Shown here piece by piece: positions 1,179-8,862 of a stretch of 8,862 nucleotides of DNA; position 1 is the stretch's first letter, and every line of letters starts with the position of its first letter. Origin of the DNA: a virus (lineage: Duplodnaviria > Heunggongvirae > Uroviricota > Caudoviricetes); IMG/VR virus record IMGVR_UViG_2537562091_000008, positions 1-8,862 of that record; one strand, written 5' to 3'. The notes beneath the pieces are model-generated. The model did no database searches, had not been told where the DNA came from, and was given only the letters and a program-made list of their open reading frames with translations. Both the position numbers and the translations under genes were made by a program.

Positions 1179-1244
1179 TTGACAGCCGCACTCCATGACG
1201 GGTAAAAAGTGGATAAAATAATTTTACCCACCGGATTTTTACCC
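1179..1244 (+). promoter_or_regulatory. Candidate integrase promoter/operator: consensus -35 TTGACA (1179-1184) plus three copies of an 8-bp motif immediately upstream of the int start
   Basis: TTGACA at 1179-1184; possible -10 TAAAAA at 1203-1208 (18-nt spacer, weak). Perfect inverted repeat GGGTAAAA (1200-1207) / TTTTACCC (1222-1229) with a further direct copy TTTTACCC at 1237-1244 abutting the ATG at 1245. Confidence 0.3.
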
Positions 1245-2402
1245 ATGCTCACCGTTAAGCAGATTGAAGCAGCAAAGCCGAAAGAAAAACCATACCGCCT
1301 TCTCGATGGTAATGGCCTGTACCTTTATGTCCCTGTATCAGGGAAAAAGGTATGGCAGCTTCGCTACAAGATTGACGGTAAGGAGAAAATCCTGACCGTC
1401 GGAAAATATCCGCTTATGACTTTGCAGGAGGCAAGGGATAAAGCATGGACTGCGAGGAAAGACATCTCGGTTGGCATCGATCCGGTAAAAGCAAAAAAGG
1501 CTTCGTCTAACAACAATTCCTTTAGCGCCATTTACAAGGAATGGTACGAGCACAAGAAGCAAGTCTGGTCTGTAGGTTATGCTACTGAACTTGCCAGAAT
1601 GTTTGATGACGACATTTTACCTATCATCGGCGGCCTTGAAATTCAAGATATTGAGCCGATGCAACTGCTGGAAGTAATCCGCAGATTTGAAGAGCGCGGG
1701 GCAATGGAGAGAGCCAATAAAGCCCGCAGAAGATGCGGAGAGGTTTTCCGTTACGCTATTGTCACCGGCAGGGCTAAATATAACCCAGCACCTGACCTTG
1801 CTGACGCCATGAAGGGATACCGCAAGAAGAACTTCCCGTTTCTTCCTGCAGACCAGATCACGGCATTTAACAAAGCACTGGCAACATTTTCAGGAAGTAT
1901 CGTATCGCTCATTGCCACCAAGGTTTTACGCTACACAGCCCTAAGAACGAAAGAGCTTCGTTCCATGCTATGGAAGAACGTCGATTTTGAAAACAGGATT
2001 ATCACCATCGACGCCAGTGTGATGAAGGGCCGCAAGATTCATGTAGTGCCGATGTCAGACCAGGTGGTTGAACTTCTCACTACGCTAAGCTCAATCACCA
2101 AACCAGTATCAGAGTTTGTTTTTGCCGGGCGCAACGATAAGAAGAAGCCAATCTGCGAGAACGCGGTACTGCTTGTGATTAAACAAATCGGCTATGAAGG
2201 TCTGGAAAGCGGTCACGGATTCAGGCATGAATTCAGCACGATTATGAACGAGCACGAATGGCCTGCCGACGCCATTGAAGTGCAACTGGCACATGCCAAC
2301 GGCGGATCTGTGCGTGGGATTTACAACCATGCACAGTATCTCGATAAGCGCAGAGAAATGATGCAGTGGTGGGCAGATTGGATTGATGAAAAGGTGGAGT
2401 AA
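1245..2402 (+). CDS. intS: Prophage tyrosine integrase (CPS-53/KpLE1 IntS-like, P4-family)
   Basis: 385-aa product starting MLTVKQIEAAKPKEKPYRLLDGNGLYLYV, recognised as E. coli IntS. Tyrosine-recombinase catalytic region present (HGFRHEF ... RGIYNHAQY). Lies about 160 bp downstream of argW in the same orientation, as at the K-12 argW-intS locus. The six-frame ORF extends to a GTG at 1209 (12 extra residues); the ATG at 1245 is preferred on homology but has no obvious Shine-Dalgarno. Confidence 0.9.
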   Translation: MLTVKQIEAAKPKEKPYRLLDGNGLYLYVPVSGKKVWQLRYKIDGKEKILTVGKYPLMTLQEARDKAWTARKDISVGIDPVKAKKASSNNNSFSAIYKEWYEHKKQVWSVGYATELARMFDDDILPIIGGLEIQDIEPMQLLEVIRRFEERGAMERANKARRRCGEVFRYAIVTGRAKYNPAPDLADAMKGYRKKNFPFLPADQITAFNKALATFSGSIVSLIATKVLRYTALRTKELRSMLWKNVDFENRIITIDASVMKGRKIHVVPMSDQVVELLTTLSSITKPVSEFVFAGRNDKKKPICENAVLLVIKQIGYEGLESGHGFRHEFSTIMNEHEWPADAIEVQLAHANGGSVRGIYNHAQYLDKRREMMQWWADWIDEKVE

Positions 2403-2411
2403 TGCCACCCA

Positions 2412-2729
2412 TCACACCACCACGCCATCCTGCAGCGCGCTGTTGATGAAGTACGTAACACGCCCCATCACCTCCACCTCTTCCGCCGCCTCCACTTCGA
2501 TCGCTTCACCATCATCCGTGATTAATGCCCTTCCCATCACTCTGGCAAATTGCGTTCTGCCGCCGGACAAAATCAGCAGAACCTGATTCTGAACCAGCCT
2601 GGTGCACGGCTGGGACGGAAGTCGCTGTCGTTCTCAAAATCGGTGGAGTTGCATGACAAAGTCATCGGGCATTATCTGAACATAAAACACTATCAGTAAG
2701 TTGGAGTCATTACCGACAATGCGCAGGAA
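2412..2729 (-). pseudogene. Decayed coding remnant convergent with intS (one in-frame TGA, no credible start codon)
   Basis: Minus-strand frame reads [31 protein letters not shown]-[TGA at 2634-2636][73 protein letters not shown], ending at TGA 2412-2414, only 10 bp from the intS stop. Protein-like composition, but interrupted and in a different frame from the ORF fragment upstream of it. Confidence 0.2.
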
Positions 2730-2899
2730 TCACGAAACTCGTTCAGATCAGGCTTATTACCATCGACTTTAACGGCAGTATTTGGCTTAAAATAAAAACC
2801 AGCGCCCCACCCGTTACCGCGCACTTCAATAATGGCAATGCTGTTAATTCATTTAACCTCTCCACCGTCAAATTTGAAAGCACCGCTTTCTGTTTTCAT
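2693..2899 (-). pseudogene. Small ORF interrupted by an in-frame TGA, translationally coupled to the upstream 61-aa ORF
   Basis: ATG at 2899-2897 lies 1 nt after the TAA of the 61-aa ORF and is preceded by GGAG (spacer about 10 nt). Reads MKTESGAFKFDGGEVK-[TGA 2849-2851][51 protein letters not shown], stop TGA at 2693-2695. Missed by the ORF track because of the internal stop. Confidence 0.3.
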
Positions 2900-2900
2900 T

Positions 2901-3086
2901 TTAATCATTCTCCGTAACAGGTTCATTGTGAGCAGCATTTAGTACTCGCTGGAGTGGCTGGTCATTTTCGCGATCTAATTCAGCCTGTAATGTATTCATT
3001 GAAGAATTAAAAGCAGGAACTTCATGACCGCTAAGATTTACGCGAAGCATAAACTGCATGATATTTTGAATAGTTTGCTTATCCAT
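2901..3086 (-). CDS. Hypothetical small acidic protein (61 aa) immediately downstream of the tailspike gene
   Basis: ORF MDKQTIQNIMQFMLRVNLSGHEVPAFNSSMNTLQAELDRENDQPLQRVLNAAHNEPVTEND. Good Shine-Dalgarno (AGGA, 7-nt spacer) before the ATG at 3086-3084. Starts 12 nt after the tailspike stop, consistent with co-transcription. No family recognised. Confidence 0.5.
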   Translation of the reverse strand: MDKQTIQNIMQFMLRVNLSGHEVPAFNSSMNTLQAELDRENDQPLQRVLNAAHNEPVTEND

Positions 3087-3098
3087 TTTATTGTCCTG

Positions 3099-4535
3099 TT
3101 AAGTTAAACCAATTAATCCATGCCCGGTTGAAGCATGTAAGTCCTGAATTAATGCTGCAACCACCTTTGCTAAATCTTCGTGAGTTATTGTTCCAGAGTT
3201 AAATGCTGCTCGGGATACGGTGCCGGTTGGCGATCCCCATCCCGTCCTCCTCTCTGAAATAACTTGATTGCCATTAAGTCGTATTCTTAAGTTGTTGAAG
3301 TTAGCCCAGTTTTCAGCCCTGTTGAAACTCAAATGTGTTGTATTTGCCGGGCCCGTTCCTACCGTAATTCGTTGATTGTCGCCCATCAAAATTGCGCAGT
3401 TGTTTGAAAATCCAGCTTCAGAAAATGAAATTCCACTCCTAAAATAATTTGTTCTAAATCTAATGCCGTTTGCAGCTCTAGATGATAGAGATCCCTCAAG
3501 TCTGATGTATTCGCCATTACCTACCTCGGTTAGTTCCTCTGTTGGAGTGGAAATAGAATTACCTCTAAACAACATTCCTGTCCAGATATAACCATTTGGA
3601 GCTTCACTCCCTCTTCCGATGGTAATCATCTGTGTTACTGGATTGCTTTTATCCTGAGTTACACATACCAACCCTCTTACAGATCCTTGCAGTGTATTCT
3701 CCATCCATCCTTTATCGGGACCTCGATTATTCAGATTAAATTCATGTGCAATAGTGCTAATCGCTCCATTCTGCACTGCATCTCCTAATACGGCACCATA
3801 TGACCACCCCCCCCATGTTTCGGCTTGCGGATTTCTTGATTCTCCACGCATGTGGTGACCAATTGAATGCCCATTCCCGCCCTCATGCTTAGCAACACTT
3901 GTAGTTGTGCATGTATATGCACTTCCTGACACCTTGCGCAAAGAGTTATAAATTACCCCCTGATCCCATCGTTTGATGCCGTCATCCCTAGTTGCAGAAC
4001 TAATTTTTTCCAGCCAAATAATGGGATCTGGAATTGGTGTTTCTGGTATGGAGAATCTCTGTCGTGTAGCATTTTTATATATGATAGTTTCATTGTTATA
4101 AATATTGTCACCAGCTGCATCTGAACCAGTCCATCCTGAGCCAGCATAAAAATTATTAAGTCCATCACCAGACTGTCCAGTCAAAACTACTCTTAACTGA
4201 TCCGGGTCATACTTCAGCACATTCGGAAAATAGAACTGATGCGCACCGTACGCATCATAAACAGCCATAGAATGGCCTTGCACGGTAACGAACTTGGCAA
4301 TCTGTCCGTTATATACCGGATATCCAGCAGCGTTAATGATGATTGGTTGAGAAACAGGAATGTGAGAACCGTCTTCGTTCTCTACATAAACCTGAATCTG
4401 GTTTTCAGGGTTTACCGGGTCAGTGTCAATTTTACCGATATAAATTTTGCCATTGGCTACGGCTTTAAAAGAACGAGCCATAGTGAAGAGTTGCGAAGGC
4501 ATGCTTACCACAACATTTGCGGTGATATCTGACAT
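3099..4535 (-). CDS. Phage tailspike protein: P22 gp9-like head-binding N-terminal domain fused to a divergent receptor-binding domain
   Basis: N-terminal ~115 aa ([97 protein letters not shown]...NVLKYDPDQ) align closely with the P22 tailspike head-binding domain as I recall it; the remaining ~360 aa are unrelated to the P22 endorhamnosidase body. Start set at ATG 4535-4533 (GGAG 7 nt upstream) rather than the upstream ATG at 4583. Visibly AT-rich relative to neighbours. Confidence 0.85.
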
Positions 4536-4656
4536 TTCATTGCTCCAGACGAATGATATGATGCAACCATGATGTGATTGCATACCGAAATGGTACTATT
4601 GAGTATTTATCCAGTAGGTTACGATGCCATTCCACCCAACTGGTGAGGCATCAAGG
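4536..4656. promoter_or_regulatory. Divergent control region between the tailspike and mnt genes, with a candidate operator (inverted repeat ATGCAA-N11-TTGCAT, 4561-4583)
   Basis: 121-bp gap between divergent start codons. Inverted repeat read directly. A plausible plus-strand promoter for mnt (-35 TTGCAT 4578-4583, 17-nt spacer, -10 GAGTAT 4601-4606) overlaps the repeat. Contains a TAGGT motif (4614-4618) that resembles part of the P22 mnt operator half-site as I recall it. Confidence 0.3.
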
Positions 4657-4923
4657 ATGTACAGCAAATACGACGAGGCGCAGTTTCACTTGAGACTTCC
4701 GCATGAACTCCACGCGAAAATTAAGCAGCGTGCGAAGATGAATAACAGGTCGCTGAACTCAGAGATAATTGCAGCGATTGAAGAATCATTGGCTAAACAA
4801 AGCTCTGCATCTGTTTACATTGACGATGCAGAGCGTATGGCAGAACAACAATCTGAGATGGTTAAGAAAATTGTCTTTGATACGCTTAAGACCATGTATA
4901 GCAATAATAAAAAGGAAACATAG
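4657..4923 (+). CDS. mnt: Mnt-like ribbon-helix-helix transcriptional repressor (P22 immI-type)
   Basis: 88-aa product MYSKYDEAQFHLRLPHELHAKIKQRAKMNNRSLNSEIIAAIEESLAKQSSASVYIDDAERMAEQQSEMVKKIVFDTLKTMYSNNKKET, closely parallel to P22 Mnt as recalled (FNFRMPMEVREKLKFRAEANGRSMNSELLQIVQDALSK ... NDAERLADEQSELVKKMVFDTLK). Alternative upstream ATG at 4624 would add 11 residues. Confidence 0.8.
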   Translation: MYSKYDEAQFHLRLPHELHAKIKQRAKMNNRSLNSEIIAAIEESLAKQSSASVYIDDAERMAEQQSEMVKKIVFDTLKTMYSNNKKET

Positions 4924-4993
4924 AAATCTAGTTTCCGGCTAAAATGGCATTGCCTTCATGATATCCTGTGAAAAACTAAGGAGAGTTAACCAT

Positions 4994-5479
4994 ATGAAAA
5001 AATCACTGTTAATTATCCCGCTTCTGCTGGTTGGATGCGCAAAAGTAAGTGACTATCAAGCAAGTTGCGAACAACGCTATCAAAAGCTTAGCGATATGGC
5101 TAATTGCCTTGATGCCAGTGTGAAGAACGACTCACGCATGGCATCAGCACCAACACCTAAGCTGTATGTCCTTGCTGCAAAGATGCTCGGGCAAGGTGTC
5201 GATGAAGGCAAGATAAGTGACGCACAGGCAAGACTTGAGCTTCAGAATCTTTATGTTCAATTACAAAGCCAAGAACAAGCCCAACAAATAGCACAAAGCC
5301 AAGCATTCCAGCAGGCTTTATTGAATTATCAGGCTGTAAACACAATGCAAGCGATCGAGCAAAAAGCGCGCCAGCCTGTTATAACTCAACCTTACCCAAC
5401 ACGCGTTGACACTTACACAAACTGCAATTCAGGGTTTGGAAATACAGTCACATGCAACAGTAGCAGTAACATCAGATAA
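4994..5479 (+). CDS. Prophage-encoded lipoprotein (candidate superinfection-exclusion / lysogenic-conversion protein)
   Basis: ATG at 4994 preceded by AAGGAG (4978-4983). N-terminus MKKSLLIIPLLLVGC is a type II signal peptide with lipobox LVGC; the residue after Cys is Ala. Mature part has a Cys-rich N-terminal segment, a Gln-rich predicted helical segment (QNLYVQLQSQEQAQQIAQSQAFQQALLNYQAVNTMQAIEQKARQ) and a C-terminal Cys pair. Same strand as and 70 bp downstream of mnt. Confidence 0.65.
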   Translation: MKKSLLIIPLLLVGCAKVSDYQASCEQRYQKLSDMANCLDASVKNDSRMASAPTPKLYVLAAKMLGQGVDEGKISDAQARLELQNLYVQLQSQEQAQQIAQSQAFQQALLNYQAVNTMQAIEQKARQPVITQPYPTRVDTYTNCNSGFGNTVTCNSSSNIR

Positions 5480-5569: not shown

Positions 5570-7567
5570 CTATTCTGACAACGAATCAGACTTAGCACCC
5601 TGCGTCAGTGCATTAATCGCTTTTTGCGCTTGCTGCATGGCTTTCTCAAACGCTGTCGATCCGCGTGGTGTGTTTGCCATTCGGAGCATTGCATTTCTGA
5701 ATGGTTCGCTCTCATAGGCGCGAGTAAGAAGTCCGTAGCTTACCGCTGCGCCAGTTGTCGCCGGGTTCATTGCTGTCCCATACCCGATAATGAACGGGAT
5801 GGTTTGCTGCCCTGTTGGTGTTGTTACTGCCGCTTTTGCAGCCTGCTGCGTGGATTGCAGGTAGTTTTTCAATCCTTTCAGATAAGCAGCGTCCTGCCCC
5901 TTAAATGTGATGCCAGTCTGGTTTTGCAGGATGTTAAGCTGTCGAAGGAACTGATCAGGGGAACCCCCTGATTTCTCCATCGCCTTTCCAATGATGCCAT
6001 TGCGCATTTGCGCCCTGCCAACACGACCAACTGAGTTATACAGCGTCTTAATTTCCGATTTGTTCTTGCTGAATAGCATGTTGTTGACAACTTCCGGCGT
6101 CAGATCGCCTTTCATGAGAACATTCTTCAGCCTGGTATTCTTTAGTTTCGCCGCTTCGTCAGCGTAGACGGCATTGGCCTGCTGATATTTACGGAGAGTA
6201 TCGTTGCCAAGATTCTGACCAATGGCACCATTGATATCGTCTGTCATCGCCTTGTAAACGCGCTGAATGGCAGCATCGGAACGGTTTGGTAACACTGGTC
6301 GTTCCCCCTTCACGTCCATTCTGAACTGGCTGCGCAGATCGCTTAATTGCTTCAAATCCAGATTTACCGGACCATCAGGACTAGCATTGCGAACAAGCTC
6401 ATCACGATAGGACTGAAGTTTTGAAATAGTCTCGTTATCAGCAACCTTACCAAGCTTCTGCAGGTTAGATATTTCTGTATCAATCTGCTGAATTGCTCGC
6501 GCAGGCTGAATGTTTACTCCAGCCATAGCATTCTGAACCTGCTCCAGTCGATTACCGGCGGCACGACGAATTCCTGATGTTTTCGCTTTAAGGCTGTCAA
6601 TAACAACCGCTGGATCATACTCGCCGAATTTATCAGCAAATCTCTGCACCAACTGACTTCTCGCTTCCTGTTGCGTTGCTCTCATTCCGCTTGTGCCAGC
6701 CAGGGGAATATTTTCTGCTGTAGTCTGCGCCATTTTCCCGACGCGGGAAGTAGGCTGTAACAGGTCTGTGGTGTGCAGAGGCACTCCTTCACGCTCTGCA
6801 AATCTGATAGCTTGCTGCGCTTCTGGTGCAATAGCACCACGAACGCCACGATAAGCAGCGCCTAATCCACGTCCGGCAGCGTTAATAGCGCCGCCAGCCA
6901 GAACGCCAACGCCTAAATCGGTGGCGAGTGCTTCCGCATCATCTTTCGCACTATTTGCAGCAAGTGATCCAACTGCGTTTTCTGCTAGAAGGCGAGTTGC
7001 CCCCTGAGCAATTCGACCAGCAAGTGTTGGTGCCTGTGTTGCCGCTCTCTCAACGCCAGCAGGAGTGAGGTAAGGCAATGCTTCAGCAAATACCCTTCCC
7101 TCTGTCGTTTGTGGAGTCAGCGCGCCTTGCTGAAGGCCAAAGTCCTGCTCTAATCCCTGCGTTGTTACTCGTGGTGCTGGTTGATATGTACCATCGCCAA
7201 TGCCGAGTTTACCGCCAGCCCAAGCCGCCGCGCTTGTTACAGCATCAGCAACTGATGCAGGTATATTTGCCACGTTCACGCCAGCCTGCACCAGTCCGCG
7301 ACCAGTCTCTTTTACTGCTTCGCCAAGATCAGACATAAATCCACTTTGCTGTGGTTGTTGCTGTGCTACTGGTTGCTGTGTCTCCACTGGCTGTACAGAT
7401 GGCAATGGATAGGCAGCATAGAAAGCTTGCTTAGCCTGCTCTGCATTTTCTCCGGCTTGCGGGGCCACGACTTCATTGAAGTATTGCTCCTGAGCTTGCG
7501 CTTTTTGTTCTGGTGCTAACGCCTGATACTGTGGAGAGGCGATAACATCTTTCCATGCTTTAGCCAT
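5570..7567 (-). CDS. Phage ejection (internal virion / DNA-transfer) protein, P22 gp16-like by position
   Basis: 665-aa ORF, the last gene of the late operon before the immunity/tailspike region, which is where gene 16 sits in P22-like genomes. Start ATG overlaps the upstream gene's stop (TAATG at 7565-7569). Long Ala/Gly/Gln-rich low-complexity segments. Assignment is by synteny and composition, not by recalled sequence identity. Confidence 0.55.
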   Translation of the reverse strand: MAKAWKDVIASPQYQALAPEQKAQAQEQYFNEVVAPQAGENAEQAKQAFYAAYPLPSVQPVETQQPVAQQQPQQSGFMSDLGEAVKETGRGLVQAGVNVANIPASVADAVTSAAAWAGGKLGIGDGTYQPAPRVTTQGLEQDFGLQQGALTPQTTEGRVFAEALPYLTPAGVERAATQAPTLAGRIAQGATRLLAENAVGSLAANSAKDDAEALATDLGVGVLAGGAINAAGRGLGAAYRGVRGAIAPEAQQAIRFAEREGVPLHTTDLLQPTSRVGKMAQTTAENIPLAGTSGMRATQQEARSQLVQRFADKFGEYDPAVVIDSLKAKTSGIRRAAGNRLEQVQNAMAGVNIQPARAIQQIDTEISNLQKLGKVADNETISKLQSYRDELVRNASPDGPVNLDLKQLSDLRSQFRMDVKGERPVLPNRSDAAIQRVYKAMTDDINGAIGQNLGNDTLRKYQQANAVYADEAAKLKNTRLKNVLMKGDLTPEVVNNMLFSKNKSEIKTLYNSVGRVGRAQMRNGIIGKAMEKSGGSPDQFLRQLNILQNQTGITFKGQDAAYLKGLKNYLQSTQQAAKAAVTTPTGQQTIPFIIGYGTAMNPATTGAAVSYGLLTRAYESEPFRNAMLRMANTPRGSTAFEKAMQQAQKAINALTQGAKSDSLSE

Positions 7568-8862
7568 TAATCACCCCATAGTGAAGAAAAATTACTGCCA
7601 GTAGTAGGTTGTTGCGCTGGCGTATTCTGTACTGGCTCCTGATAATCAAACTGTTTTTTAACAGTGCTCAACTTGCTTTCAAGCTGATTTCTAATCTTTC
7701 CGATAGAGTCACGAAAAGCCTTTTCACTCATTTTGGGGCTTAGGGCACCAACCGCATCGGATAATTTTTTACCCTCAGCATCTGAAAGAGCACCCATACC
7801 CTTCAGGGACTGCACCATAGGAAGGAATGTTTGAGCTTTAAAGGTGTCGAGCCTTGCTTCAAAGTTAGCCGCATCAGAGCCAGGAACTGTCGGAAACGCT
7901 GAGCGAATTCCTACTGCTTTTGAAAGGCCGGGGCTTTGCTCTATCTCGTTGAGAGAATCAAGCGCGGTGCTGAACGTATCAACTGCACCCTGAGCTGCGG
8001 CCTGCCTGTCAGCGCGGGCTATGTCAGCCTTTTGCCGAACATCTGCCTGTTTCTGTTTTAGCTCTTCAAGCTTTAACTGATTGCTTTCTCTGGCTATCTG
8101 TCTGTCCAGAGCCTTTTCTTGTAACTCTGCTCTTTGTATTTCTCGGGAAAGAGCAGCATTCTGTGCGCTGATGTTCTGTCCACGTATCTGGATGTCCTGA
8201 CCTCGAGCTGTTAGTGCTTCACCTGCCTGATTGCTGCGGATTGTCTCTGCCAGCCTGCCTCTGTCAATTTCACGACCAGCCATCTTGTCCTGAACATTGA
8301 AGTAATCAATCGGACCAAGCGCAGCCATCCCAAGGTGATCAACAAACTCACCAAATCCTGAAGGATTCTGCTGATACATCTGAGCAACGTTGTTAGGGTC
8401 AACAGCGACGCGCGCCAGTTCCTTGGCGTTATTTTGCAGCCACGATTGCATTGCTTCTGGAGATGAGGCCGCAAGGCGTGCGCCAGCCGCTAAGGTGCCG
8501 ATAGAATTACGCTGGTCTTCATCAATGAATCCCATGCCTTTACGAACGGATTCAATCTGGTCTGGATATTGAGTAGCCAACTGACGCAAAGCACCGCGAT
8601 CACCAGACGCATAAGCATTAGCGTACGCCTGCTGGAATTCTTTCTTCCGCTGAGCCTGCTTCTCCTGCTGAAACACCCCCGCAATACCTGAAAGGCCTTG
8701 CAAAGCAGTCAGCCCAACATTGTTAGCGCCTGAACGCTCAATATCATTGTTCTGCCTGATAAGCTGAAGCGTGTTGCCGATGTCATTTACGCTCGGAGCG
8801 TTTGAGTTGACACCACCGATACCAGCCAACAATCCGCCATTTGTTCCTTGCCAAGTAGCCAT
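7567..8862 (-). CDS. Phage ejection protein, P22 gp20-like by position (start coincides with window edge; may be 5'-truncated)
   Basis: 431-aa ORF beginning MATWQGTNGG exactly at the window boundary, immediately upstream of and coupled to the gp16-like gene. Contains a charged predicted coiled-coil segment (AQNAALSREIQRAELQEKALDRQIARESNQLKLEELKQKQADVRQKADIARADRQ). Confidence 0.5.
   Translation of the reverse strand: MATWQGTNGGLLAGIGGVNSNAPSVNDIGNTLQLIRQNNDIERSGANNVGLTALQGLSGIAGVFQQEKQAQRKKEFQQAYANAYASGDRGALRQLATQYPDQIESVRKGMGFIDEDQRNSIGTLAAGARLAASSPEAMQSWLQNNAKELARVAVDPNNVAQMYQQNPSGFGEFVDHLGMAALGPIDYFNVQDKMAGREIDRGRLAETIRSNQAGEALTARGQDIQIRGQNISAQNAALSREIQRAELQEKALDRQIARESNQLKLEELKQKQADVRQKADIARADRQAAAQGAVDTFSTALDSLNEIEQSPGLSKAVGIRSAFPTVPGSDAANFEARLDTFKAQTFLPMVQSLKGMGALSDAEGKKLSDAVGALSPKMSEKAFRDSIGKIRNQLESKLSTVKKQFDYQEPVQNTPAQQPTTGSNFSSLWGD

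Follow-up and report, generated by a model that had tools for sequence, protein, structure and literature searches.

The question raised by this locus is how the protein-like reading frames at positions 2412-2899 of an 8,862-nucleotide stretch of viral DNA, here called the window, came to be interrupted by TGA codons. The original prediction had taken the interval for a single gene of about 165 codons in a moron position and had considered a short leader peptide followed by a UGA readthrough product less likely. The frames were checked by six-frame translation and on the minus-strand sequence, and the TGA codons, the open frames, the Shine-Dalgarno sequence, and the TAA-A-ATG junction that it had reported were all present. 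On the minus strand, one frame starts with ATG at 2899-2897 and reads MKTESGAFKFDGGEVK, TGA (2851-2849), a further 51 residues, and a TGA-TAG double stop at 2695-2690. The second frame on this strand stays open from about position 2729, meets a TGA at 2636-2634, and ends with TGA at 2414-2412. Upstream of the first frame lies its partner orf61 (2901-3086, minus strand), an intact ORF of 61 aa in the sequence. The TAA stop of orf61 is followed by a single A and then by the ATG of the first frame, with GGAG located 10 nt upstream of this ATG. The evidence presented here points to frames that belong to three different entities. We are highly confident that the interval is a composite scar, made by IS1 plus a deletion, that joins the head of a gene designated X to the tail of a UmuD-like gene and carries a secondary nonsense mutation, in a P22-like prophage at argW.

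The window starts at its left end with yfdC (1-933), followed by the tRNA-Arg(CCU) gene argW (1009-1083), which lies upstream of the gene for the prophage integrase IntS (ORF 1209-2402, plus strand; the start annotated in relatives is 1245). IntS was assigned from Pfam and the RefSeq annotation of relatives and contains arm-binding, central, and catalytic integrase domains according to Pfam. Its gene is convergent with the 2412-2899 interval. On the other side of the interval is the gene for a P22-type tailspike with head-binding domain and receptor-binding part (3099-4583, minus strand), matching PF09008 (Head_binding) with an E value of 2e-66 and also PHROG tailspike families. Two DNA-transfer (ejection) proteins are encoded at 5570-7567 and 7567-8862 on the minus strand, as assigned from the annotation of relatives and the Pfam families of L006 (Escherichia coli GCA_003291775.1). 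Arc-type genes also lie to the right of the integrase gene, in the minus-strand late end of the P22-like prophage. The late genes end with the tailspike gene, after which the cargo interval starts, and 2412-2899, enclosed between it and the convergent integrase gene, occupies a variable cargo (moron) position. To this extent, inactivated coding DNA in a moron position had been recognized correctly. A promoter and terminator scan of 2300-4700 gave counts at chance level.

Some observations concern the neighboring genes. The tailspike ORF of the window has 16 additional codons upstream (ATG 4583), where relatives have a stop and start at the equivalent of 4535. This ORF is unbroken in the window and in the E. 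coli genomes EF5-18-41 and CFSAN061770. In the latter two, RefSeq annotates the N-terminal head-binding part only and calls it an "incomplete" pseudogene, apparently through an artefact of annotation. A 173-aa ORF on the plus strand (4958-5479), between the tailspike and the DNA-transfer genes, matched phrog_6067 (unknown function) with an E value of 2e-110; its N terminus showed weak similarity (E 0.03) to Cor superinfection-exclusion lipoproteins.

The middle part of the interval, 2604-2714, is a remnant of IS1 in plus orientation that comprises nucleotides 658-768 of the 768-bp element (111 bp). By direct alignment it was near-identical (about 97%) to the IS1B copy of ETEC H10407 (L003). 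The alignment stops at the terminus GGAGTCATTACC, and the terminal repeat GTTGGAGTCATTACC ends exactly at 2714. The right terminal inverted repeat occupies 2692-2714 on the plus strand, and 22 of its 23 positions match the right end of IS1B, GGTAATGACTCCAACTTATTGAT. All that remains of the insA/insB coding sequence is the last 31 codons of insB on the plus strand, with the stop TAA at 2697-2699. A complete 768-bp IS1 with both inverted repeats is absent; one end survives, and the left end has been deleted together with its flank. The IS1 of the window is a remnant, not an active element. When the region 2380-3110 was compared by megablast with 5426 complete E. coli genomes, thousands of matches covered the middle of the query only, all of them annotated as IS1. 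The remnant has already been annotated in RefSeq relatives, as "IS1 family transposase, incomplete" at the equivalent of 2604-2714. An apparent continuation of IS1 homology past 2714 in the megablast matches was attributed to chance extension into the flank on the basis of the direct alignment to IS1B. On the minus strand, 2604-2714 is the antisense of the 3' end of insB and no protein frame; the TGA at 2634-2636 lies on this antisense strand. The frame change that had been placed at 2693-2729 proved to be the IS1 terminus at 2714/2715.

To the right of the IS1 end, gene X survives at 2715-2899 (minus strand) as its 5' part, codons 1-61 and 2 nt more, cut at 2714/2715. To the left, at 2412-2611 (minus strand), what is left of a UmuD-like gene (phrog_3469) is its 3' part, from codon 40 to codon 104, with the stop codon at 2412-2414. 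Chance open frames in noncoding DNA, which the original prediction had named as the finding that would speak against it, were not what was met: the two outer frames match intact genes at the protein level, with 89-98% identity for X and 97% for the UmuD-like part, and show a coding-type substitution pattern. The pN/pS ratio was 0.23 for the UmuD-like part compared with L006 and 0.24 for X compared with the copy in Phapecoctavirus phages; the ratio for X compared with L006 was 0.73, from only 11 differences. Because the divergence from the diverged homologues is mostly synonymous, both outer fragments are, judged from sequence comparison, former genes.

The two halves correspond to separate genes, X (88-94 aa) and the UmuD-like gene (104-116 aa), rather than to one ancestral gene. 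Intact orthologues, the existence of which had been anticipated, were found for both outer frames, but none of them spanned both halves in the protein searches. The single-gene reading, in which about 165 codons were recently put out of action by one frameshift and two nonsense mutations to TGA, would agree with frames that are contiguous and on the same strand and with outer parts that are both real former coding DNA. It is nevertheless extremely unlikely, because the middle 111 bp are IS1, neither of the two protein searches returned a homologue that covers both halves, and the halves match two families whose intact members are complete and, in L006-L008, have two genes between them. We therefore return to the composite scar, in which the main lesion would be not two TGA codons and a frameshift but the arrival of IS1 and a subsequent loss of about 2 kb.

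The intact arrangement was found in relatives. In L006, L007, and L008 alike, the order is tailspike, orf61, X, a 393-aa gene on the opposite strand, a 79-aa gene, and the UmuD-like gene. In E. coli PK12 (L002), the annotation of the 393-aa gene is family-2 glycosyltransferase; the 79-aa gene corresponds to phrog_3893. X and the UmuD-like gene are about 1.5 kb apart in the intact relatives. In a blastn comparison the window was collinear with L006 from window position 4700 to exactly 2714 (L006 4182-6186), and the match resumed at window position 2603 (L006 8153). Thus, 1966 bp of L006 are replaced in the window by the 111-bp IS1 remnant; the skipped DNA comprises what remains of X, both middle genes (393 aa and 79 aa), and the beginning of the UmuD-like gene. 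The ancestral cargo of the window lineage would have been of this kind, as deduced from relatives that are 80-97% identical, and its content could have differed.

L006 itself shows two further peculiarities. Its P22-like prophage end adjoins ybhB-bioA and is without an integrase gene, and the final 57-94 bp of intS occur twice, at L006 8353-8410 and 8647-8740.

Homology to L002 reaches position 2611 and homology to IS1 starts at position 2604; the inner, deletion junction is therefore placed at the 8-bp microhomology GCACGGCT (2604-2611), common to IS1 nucleotides 658-665 and the UmuD-like gene. The microhomology lies inside a patch of 36-38 bp with about 79% similarity (2576-2611); when all of IS1 is compared with the intact 2.4-kb L002 interval, no other local similarity is better. 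The patch scored 29 compared with 22.8 ± 2.0 for shuffled sequences, and its score was reached by 3 of 200 shuffles. Guidance of the deletion by this microhomology is suggested, not proven, by these values.

The events can be ordered as follows. IS1 would first have inserted into codon 62 of X. Next, a deletion between IS1 nucleotides 658-665 and codons 39-41 of the UmuD-like gene would have crossed at the 8-bp microhomology. IS1 would thereby have lost nucleotides 1-657, X its 3' end, and the UmuD-like gene its first 39 codons; both genes in the middle would be gone, and the phage DNA lost would total about 2 kb. Finally, codon 17 of the dead X gene changed from GGA to TGA in a sublineage that includes the window. 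The same scar was detected in 3 of the 5426 complete E. coli genomes (EF5-18-41, CFSAN061770, and EP91A). Among species-representative genomes scanned for the X/IS1 junction there was no match and no complete IS1 inside X, and a metagenome scan for the junction yielded one contig, L010, which ends inside IS1. The predicted intermediate with a complete IS1 in X was found neither in the species-representative genomes nor in the metagenome scan.

The nonsense codon TGA at 2849-2851 (minus strand) is codon 17 of X, and relatives have GGA, encoding Gly, in its place. Position 2851 is A in the window versus C in L001. All intact X homologues have Gly at codon 17. EF5-18-41, which is 99.0% identical and has the same scar, differs by one base at 2849-2851 and reads GGA; metagenome contig L010, with the same X/IS1 junction as the window, also has GGA at codon 17. 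Over 2715-2899, the complete genomes CFSAN061770 and EP91A do not differ from the window at any position (100% identity), hence they have the same TGA. Because EF5-18-41 and L010 keep GGA although they carry this X/IS1 junction, the nonsense mutation at 2849-2851 is real and arose later than the IS1 event, in an already truncated X. Of the two premature stops proposed, this one is a true nonsense codon, and the other, at 2634-2636, lies in antisense IS1.

Two alternatives can be weighed against this polymorphism. The first attributes the IS1 junctions or the TGA at 2849-2851 to sequencing errors or a chimeric assembly. IS elements often break or mis-join short-read assemblies, and contig L010 ends inside the IS1 part. 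The same junctions, however, occur in three independently finished complete genomes, two of which share the identical TGA allele, and an ENA gene call (P0001) has this allele as well; an artefact of this kind has a very small probability. The second alternative is UGA recoding, in which a short leader peptide would be made along with a second product that depends on UGA readthrough or on selenocysteine insertion. Both in-frame stops are indeed TGA. But orthologues have GGA, not TGA or TGC, at 2849-2851, the second TGA is located in antisense IS1, and readthrough would meet IS1-encoded residues and the TGA-TAG double stop. The 67 nt after each TGA folded no better than shuffled sequences (z = +1.04 and -1.06), in line with the expectation that SECIS-like hairpins would be absent, and an Rfam scan of the whole window at E ≤ 1 returned a tRNA as the sole match. 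With glycine encoded by GGA in the orthologues and no SECIS-like structure detected 3' of the TGA codons, readthrough, already held to be the less likely reading, is exceedingly improbable, and a late nonsense mutation in a truncated gene is the preferred explanation of the TGA at 2849-2851.

In the ENA metagenome gene call P0001, from a 1047-nt contig, the window allele is presented as a single protein of 69 aa in which W stands for each TGA, at codon 17 and after TPTY. Apparently, TGA was read as Trp, so that the pseudogene appears intact in that database.

The UmuD-like gene is present intact in E. coli PK12 (L002 4030-4344), where it encodes 104 aa and directly adjoins intS. The window fragment is 97% identical to residues 43-104 of this orthologue and covers the C-terminal 65 residues only. 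The PK12 protein matched positions 1-101 of the 106 positions of phrog_3469 ("UmuD-like protein") with an E value of 3.6e-40, and the family had 719 matches in Enterobacterales, with 98-107 aa among the matches listed. L006 has a 116-aa version, which owes its length to a frame that extends into the antisense strand of the first int fragment. The intact orthologue starts with MGFPSPAGDYVEQR, and its alignment to UmuD begins at residue 25, where UmuD' starts. The UmuD' N-terminal arm, GFPSPAADYVEQR, was recognized in the intact orthologue with an hhalign probability of 95.6% and a PDB profile E value of 0.004 to 8gmt/1umu. Similarity to UmuD was detectable over UmuD residues 25-62 only and was absent for the C-terminal 65 codons kept in the window; the arm is deleted from the window. 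The catalytic Ser60 position aligns with Ala or Val (UmuD SGDS60M pairs with SGYAI, consensus SGFAV, with Ser60 opposite Ala), Lys97 had no aligned counterpart, and the Ser60-Lys97 dyad was not found. Searches with the intact orthologue gave no Pfam family at E ≤ 0.1, and Peptidase_S24 was not matched. The AlphaFold2 model of the 104-aa protein had a mean pLDDT of 42.7, too poor for a fold search. A search of the literature on phage UmuD-like proteins and HumD returned general SOS and P1 papers only, none of them on the UmuD-like family described here.

CFSAN061770 carries the same scar with a UmuD-like remnant that differs from that of the window by 24 clustered differences and a 1-nt deletion at window position 2488 (L004 6043-6164, equivalent to window 2422-2543), and its X remnant is 100% identical to that of the window despite the altered UmuD-like remnant. 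This may reflect either a different allele acquired through recombination or uneven decay. The 1-nt deletion and the substitutions are consistent with continuing decay.

Intact X homologues (P0002-P0005) have 88-94 aa and showed 87-97% protein identity over the 61 residues in a protein search. They go on as CALSMFPLPAIDALYVAACVAFDAV where the window has the IS1-encoded SVMTPTY. An exhaustive search of 1.84 billion cluster representatives yielded a family of 15 members at E ≤ 0.001, which is unnamed and ranges in length from 77 to 97 aa. Its conserved core consists of W31, P39, G47, K49-P50, and F55 plus a C-terminal helix, PLxAIDALYVAACVAFD (alignment A1). This helix, the best-conserved part of X, is absent from the window; the N-terminal core residues are kept. 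The window X is a truncated family member with a stop at codon 17. Pfam and PHROG scans with the X fragment did not find a family. AlphaFold2 modeling of intact X, based on a 14-sequence alignment, gave three strands and two helices with a pLDDT of 82-92 for residues 20-84, and a Foldseek search of PDB and BFVD with this model gave no match at E ≤ 0.001.

No functional product is expected from 2412-2899. PGAP still calls the 52-aa UmuD-like tail a "hypothetical protein," and the same applies to a 68-aa X'-IS1 chimera in EF5-18-41. The fragments might still act as small genes, either as the 52-aa UmuD-like peptide (TTG 2570) or as a 16-aa X-start peptide coupled to orf61; PGAP annotates the 52-aa ORF in EF5-18-41, and the X start retains GGAG and the TAA-A-ATG coupling. 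We consider this very unlikely, because the 52-aa ORF is without the UmuD'-like N-terminal arm, the sole part detectably similar to UmuD, is without an evident ribosome-binding site, and is frameshifted in CFSAN061770, and because the X remnant is without the most conserved part of its family. Loss of function of both genes is thus the favored outcome of the composite scar.

The pair of orf61 and X with one-base spacing was also found in L006-L009. Moreover, the virulent Phapecoctavirus phages nieznany, tuntematon, and ECML-183-2 have the same pair. In Escherichia phage nieznany (L005 1311-1743), a homologue of orf61 (67% identical) is followed after one base by a homologue of X (80% identical over 41 residues). 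There, the pair comes directly after the gene for a tailspike-like protein, whose C-terminal part is 26% identical to the receptor-binding region of the window tailspike. The small genes (67-80%) are far better conserved than the tailspike receptor-binding part ahead of them (26%). Because the Phapecoctavirus pair directly follows a tailspike-like protein, orf61 and X appear to form a cassette that moves together with tailspike genes. Tentatively, and with rather less than even probability, this two-gene cassette may have passed between virulent Phapecoctavirus myophages and temperate podophages of the P22-like type, and X could be a new tailspike-associated or host-surface-related factor.

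PK12 has a different 80-aa gene, not X, after its orf61 homologue (L002 6003-6245). The end of the encoded protein, LPYATIDC, resembles the tail of the Phapecoctavirus X homologue, PPYAATSIDC, and the two proteins may have a common C-terminal motif.

The scar as such is of little biological weight; routine erosion of prophage cargo by an insertion sequence and a deletion is a well known kind of event and belongs to ordinary prophage decay. It does call for caution in three respects. A run of adjoining "protein-like" frames with TGA stops may turn out to be pieced together from remnants of unrelated genes and the antisense of an IS element, two of the fragments remain RefSeq hypothetical proteins in related genomes, and P0001 displays tryptophan at the TGA codons. 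What has been gained is the identification of the two lost genes, one of which, X, represents a small, rare, uncharacterized family that accompanies tailspikes in two widely dissimilar groups of phages.

Several features of the locus have counterparts in known systems. With the argW prophage CPS-53/KpLE1, which has IntS, the window shares an IntS-type integrase at tRNA-Arg(CCU). With the cargo intervals of P22-like phages, exemplified by gtrABC of P22 and oac of Sf6, it shares the position after the tailspike gene, and relatives of the window also have a glycosyltransferase-like gene there. In contrast to gtrABC and oac, the ancestral set here would have been orf61, X, the family-2 glycosyltransferase-like gene, the 79-aa gene, and the UmuD-like gene, most of which is deleted in the window. 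A protein of phage mEp390 annotated as "UmuD-like protein" is an example of the phrog_3469 family. HumD of phage P1 resembles the pre-cleaved form of UmuD, and the PK12 orthologue likewise begins at the UmuD' start. Finally, remnants of IS1 (IS1A/IS1B) and IS-associated deletions occur in E. coli prophages, and the IS1 of the window too interrupts a gene and borders a deletion. A classical transposase-made adjacent deletion leaves the IS1 element whole, whereas here a junction at short homology would have removed most of IS1 itself.
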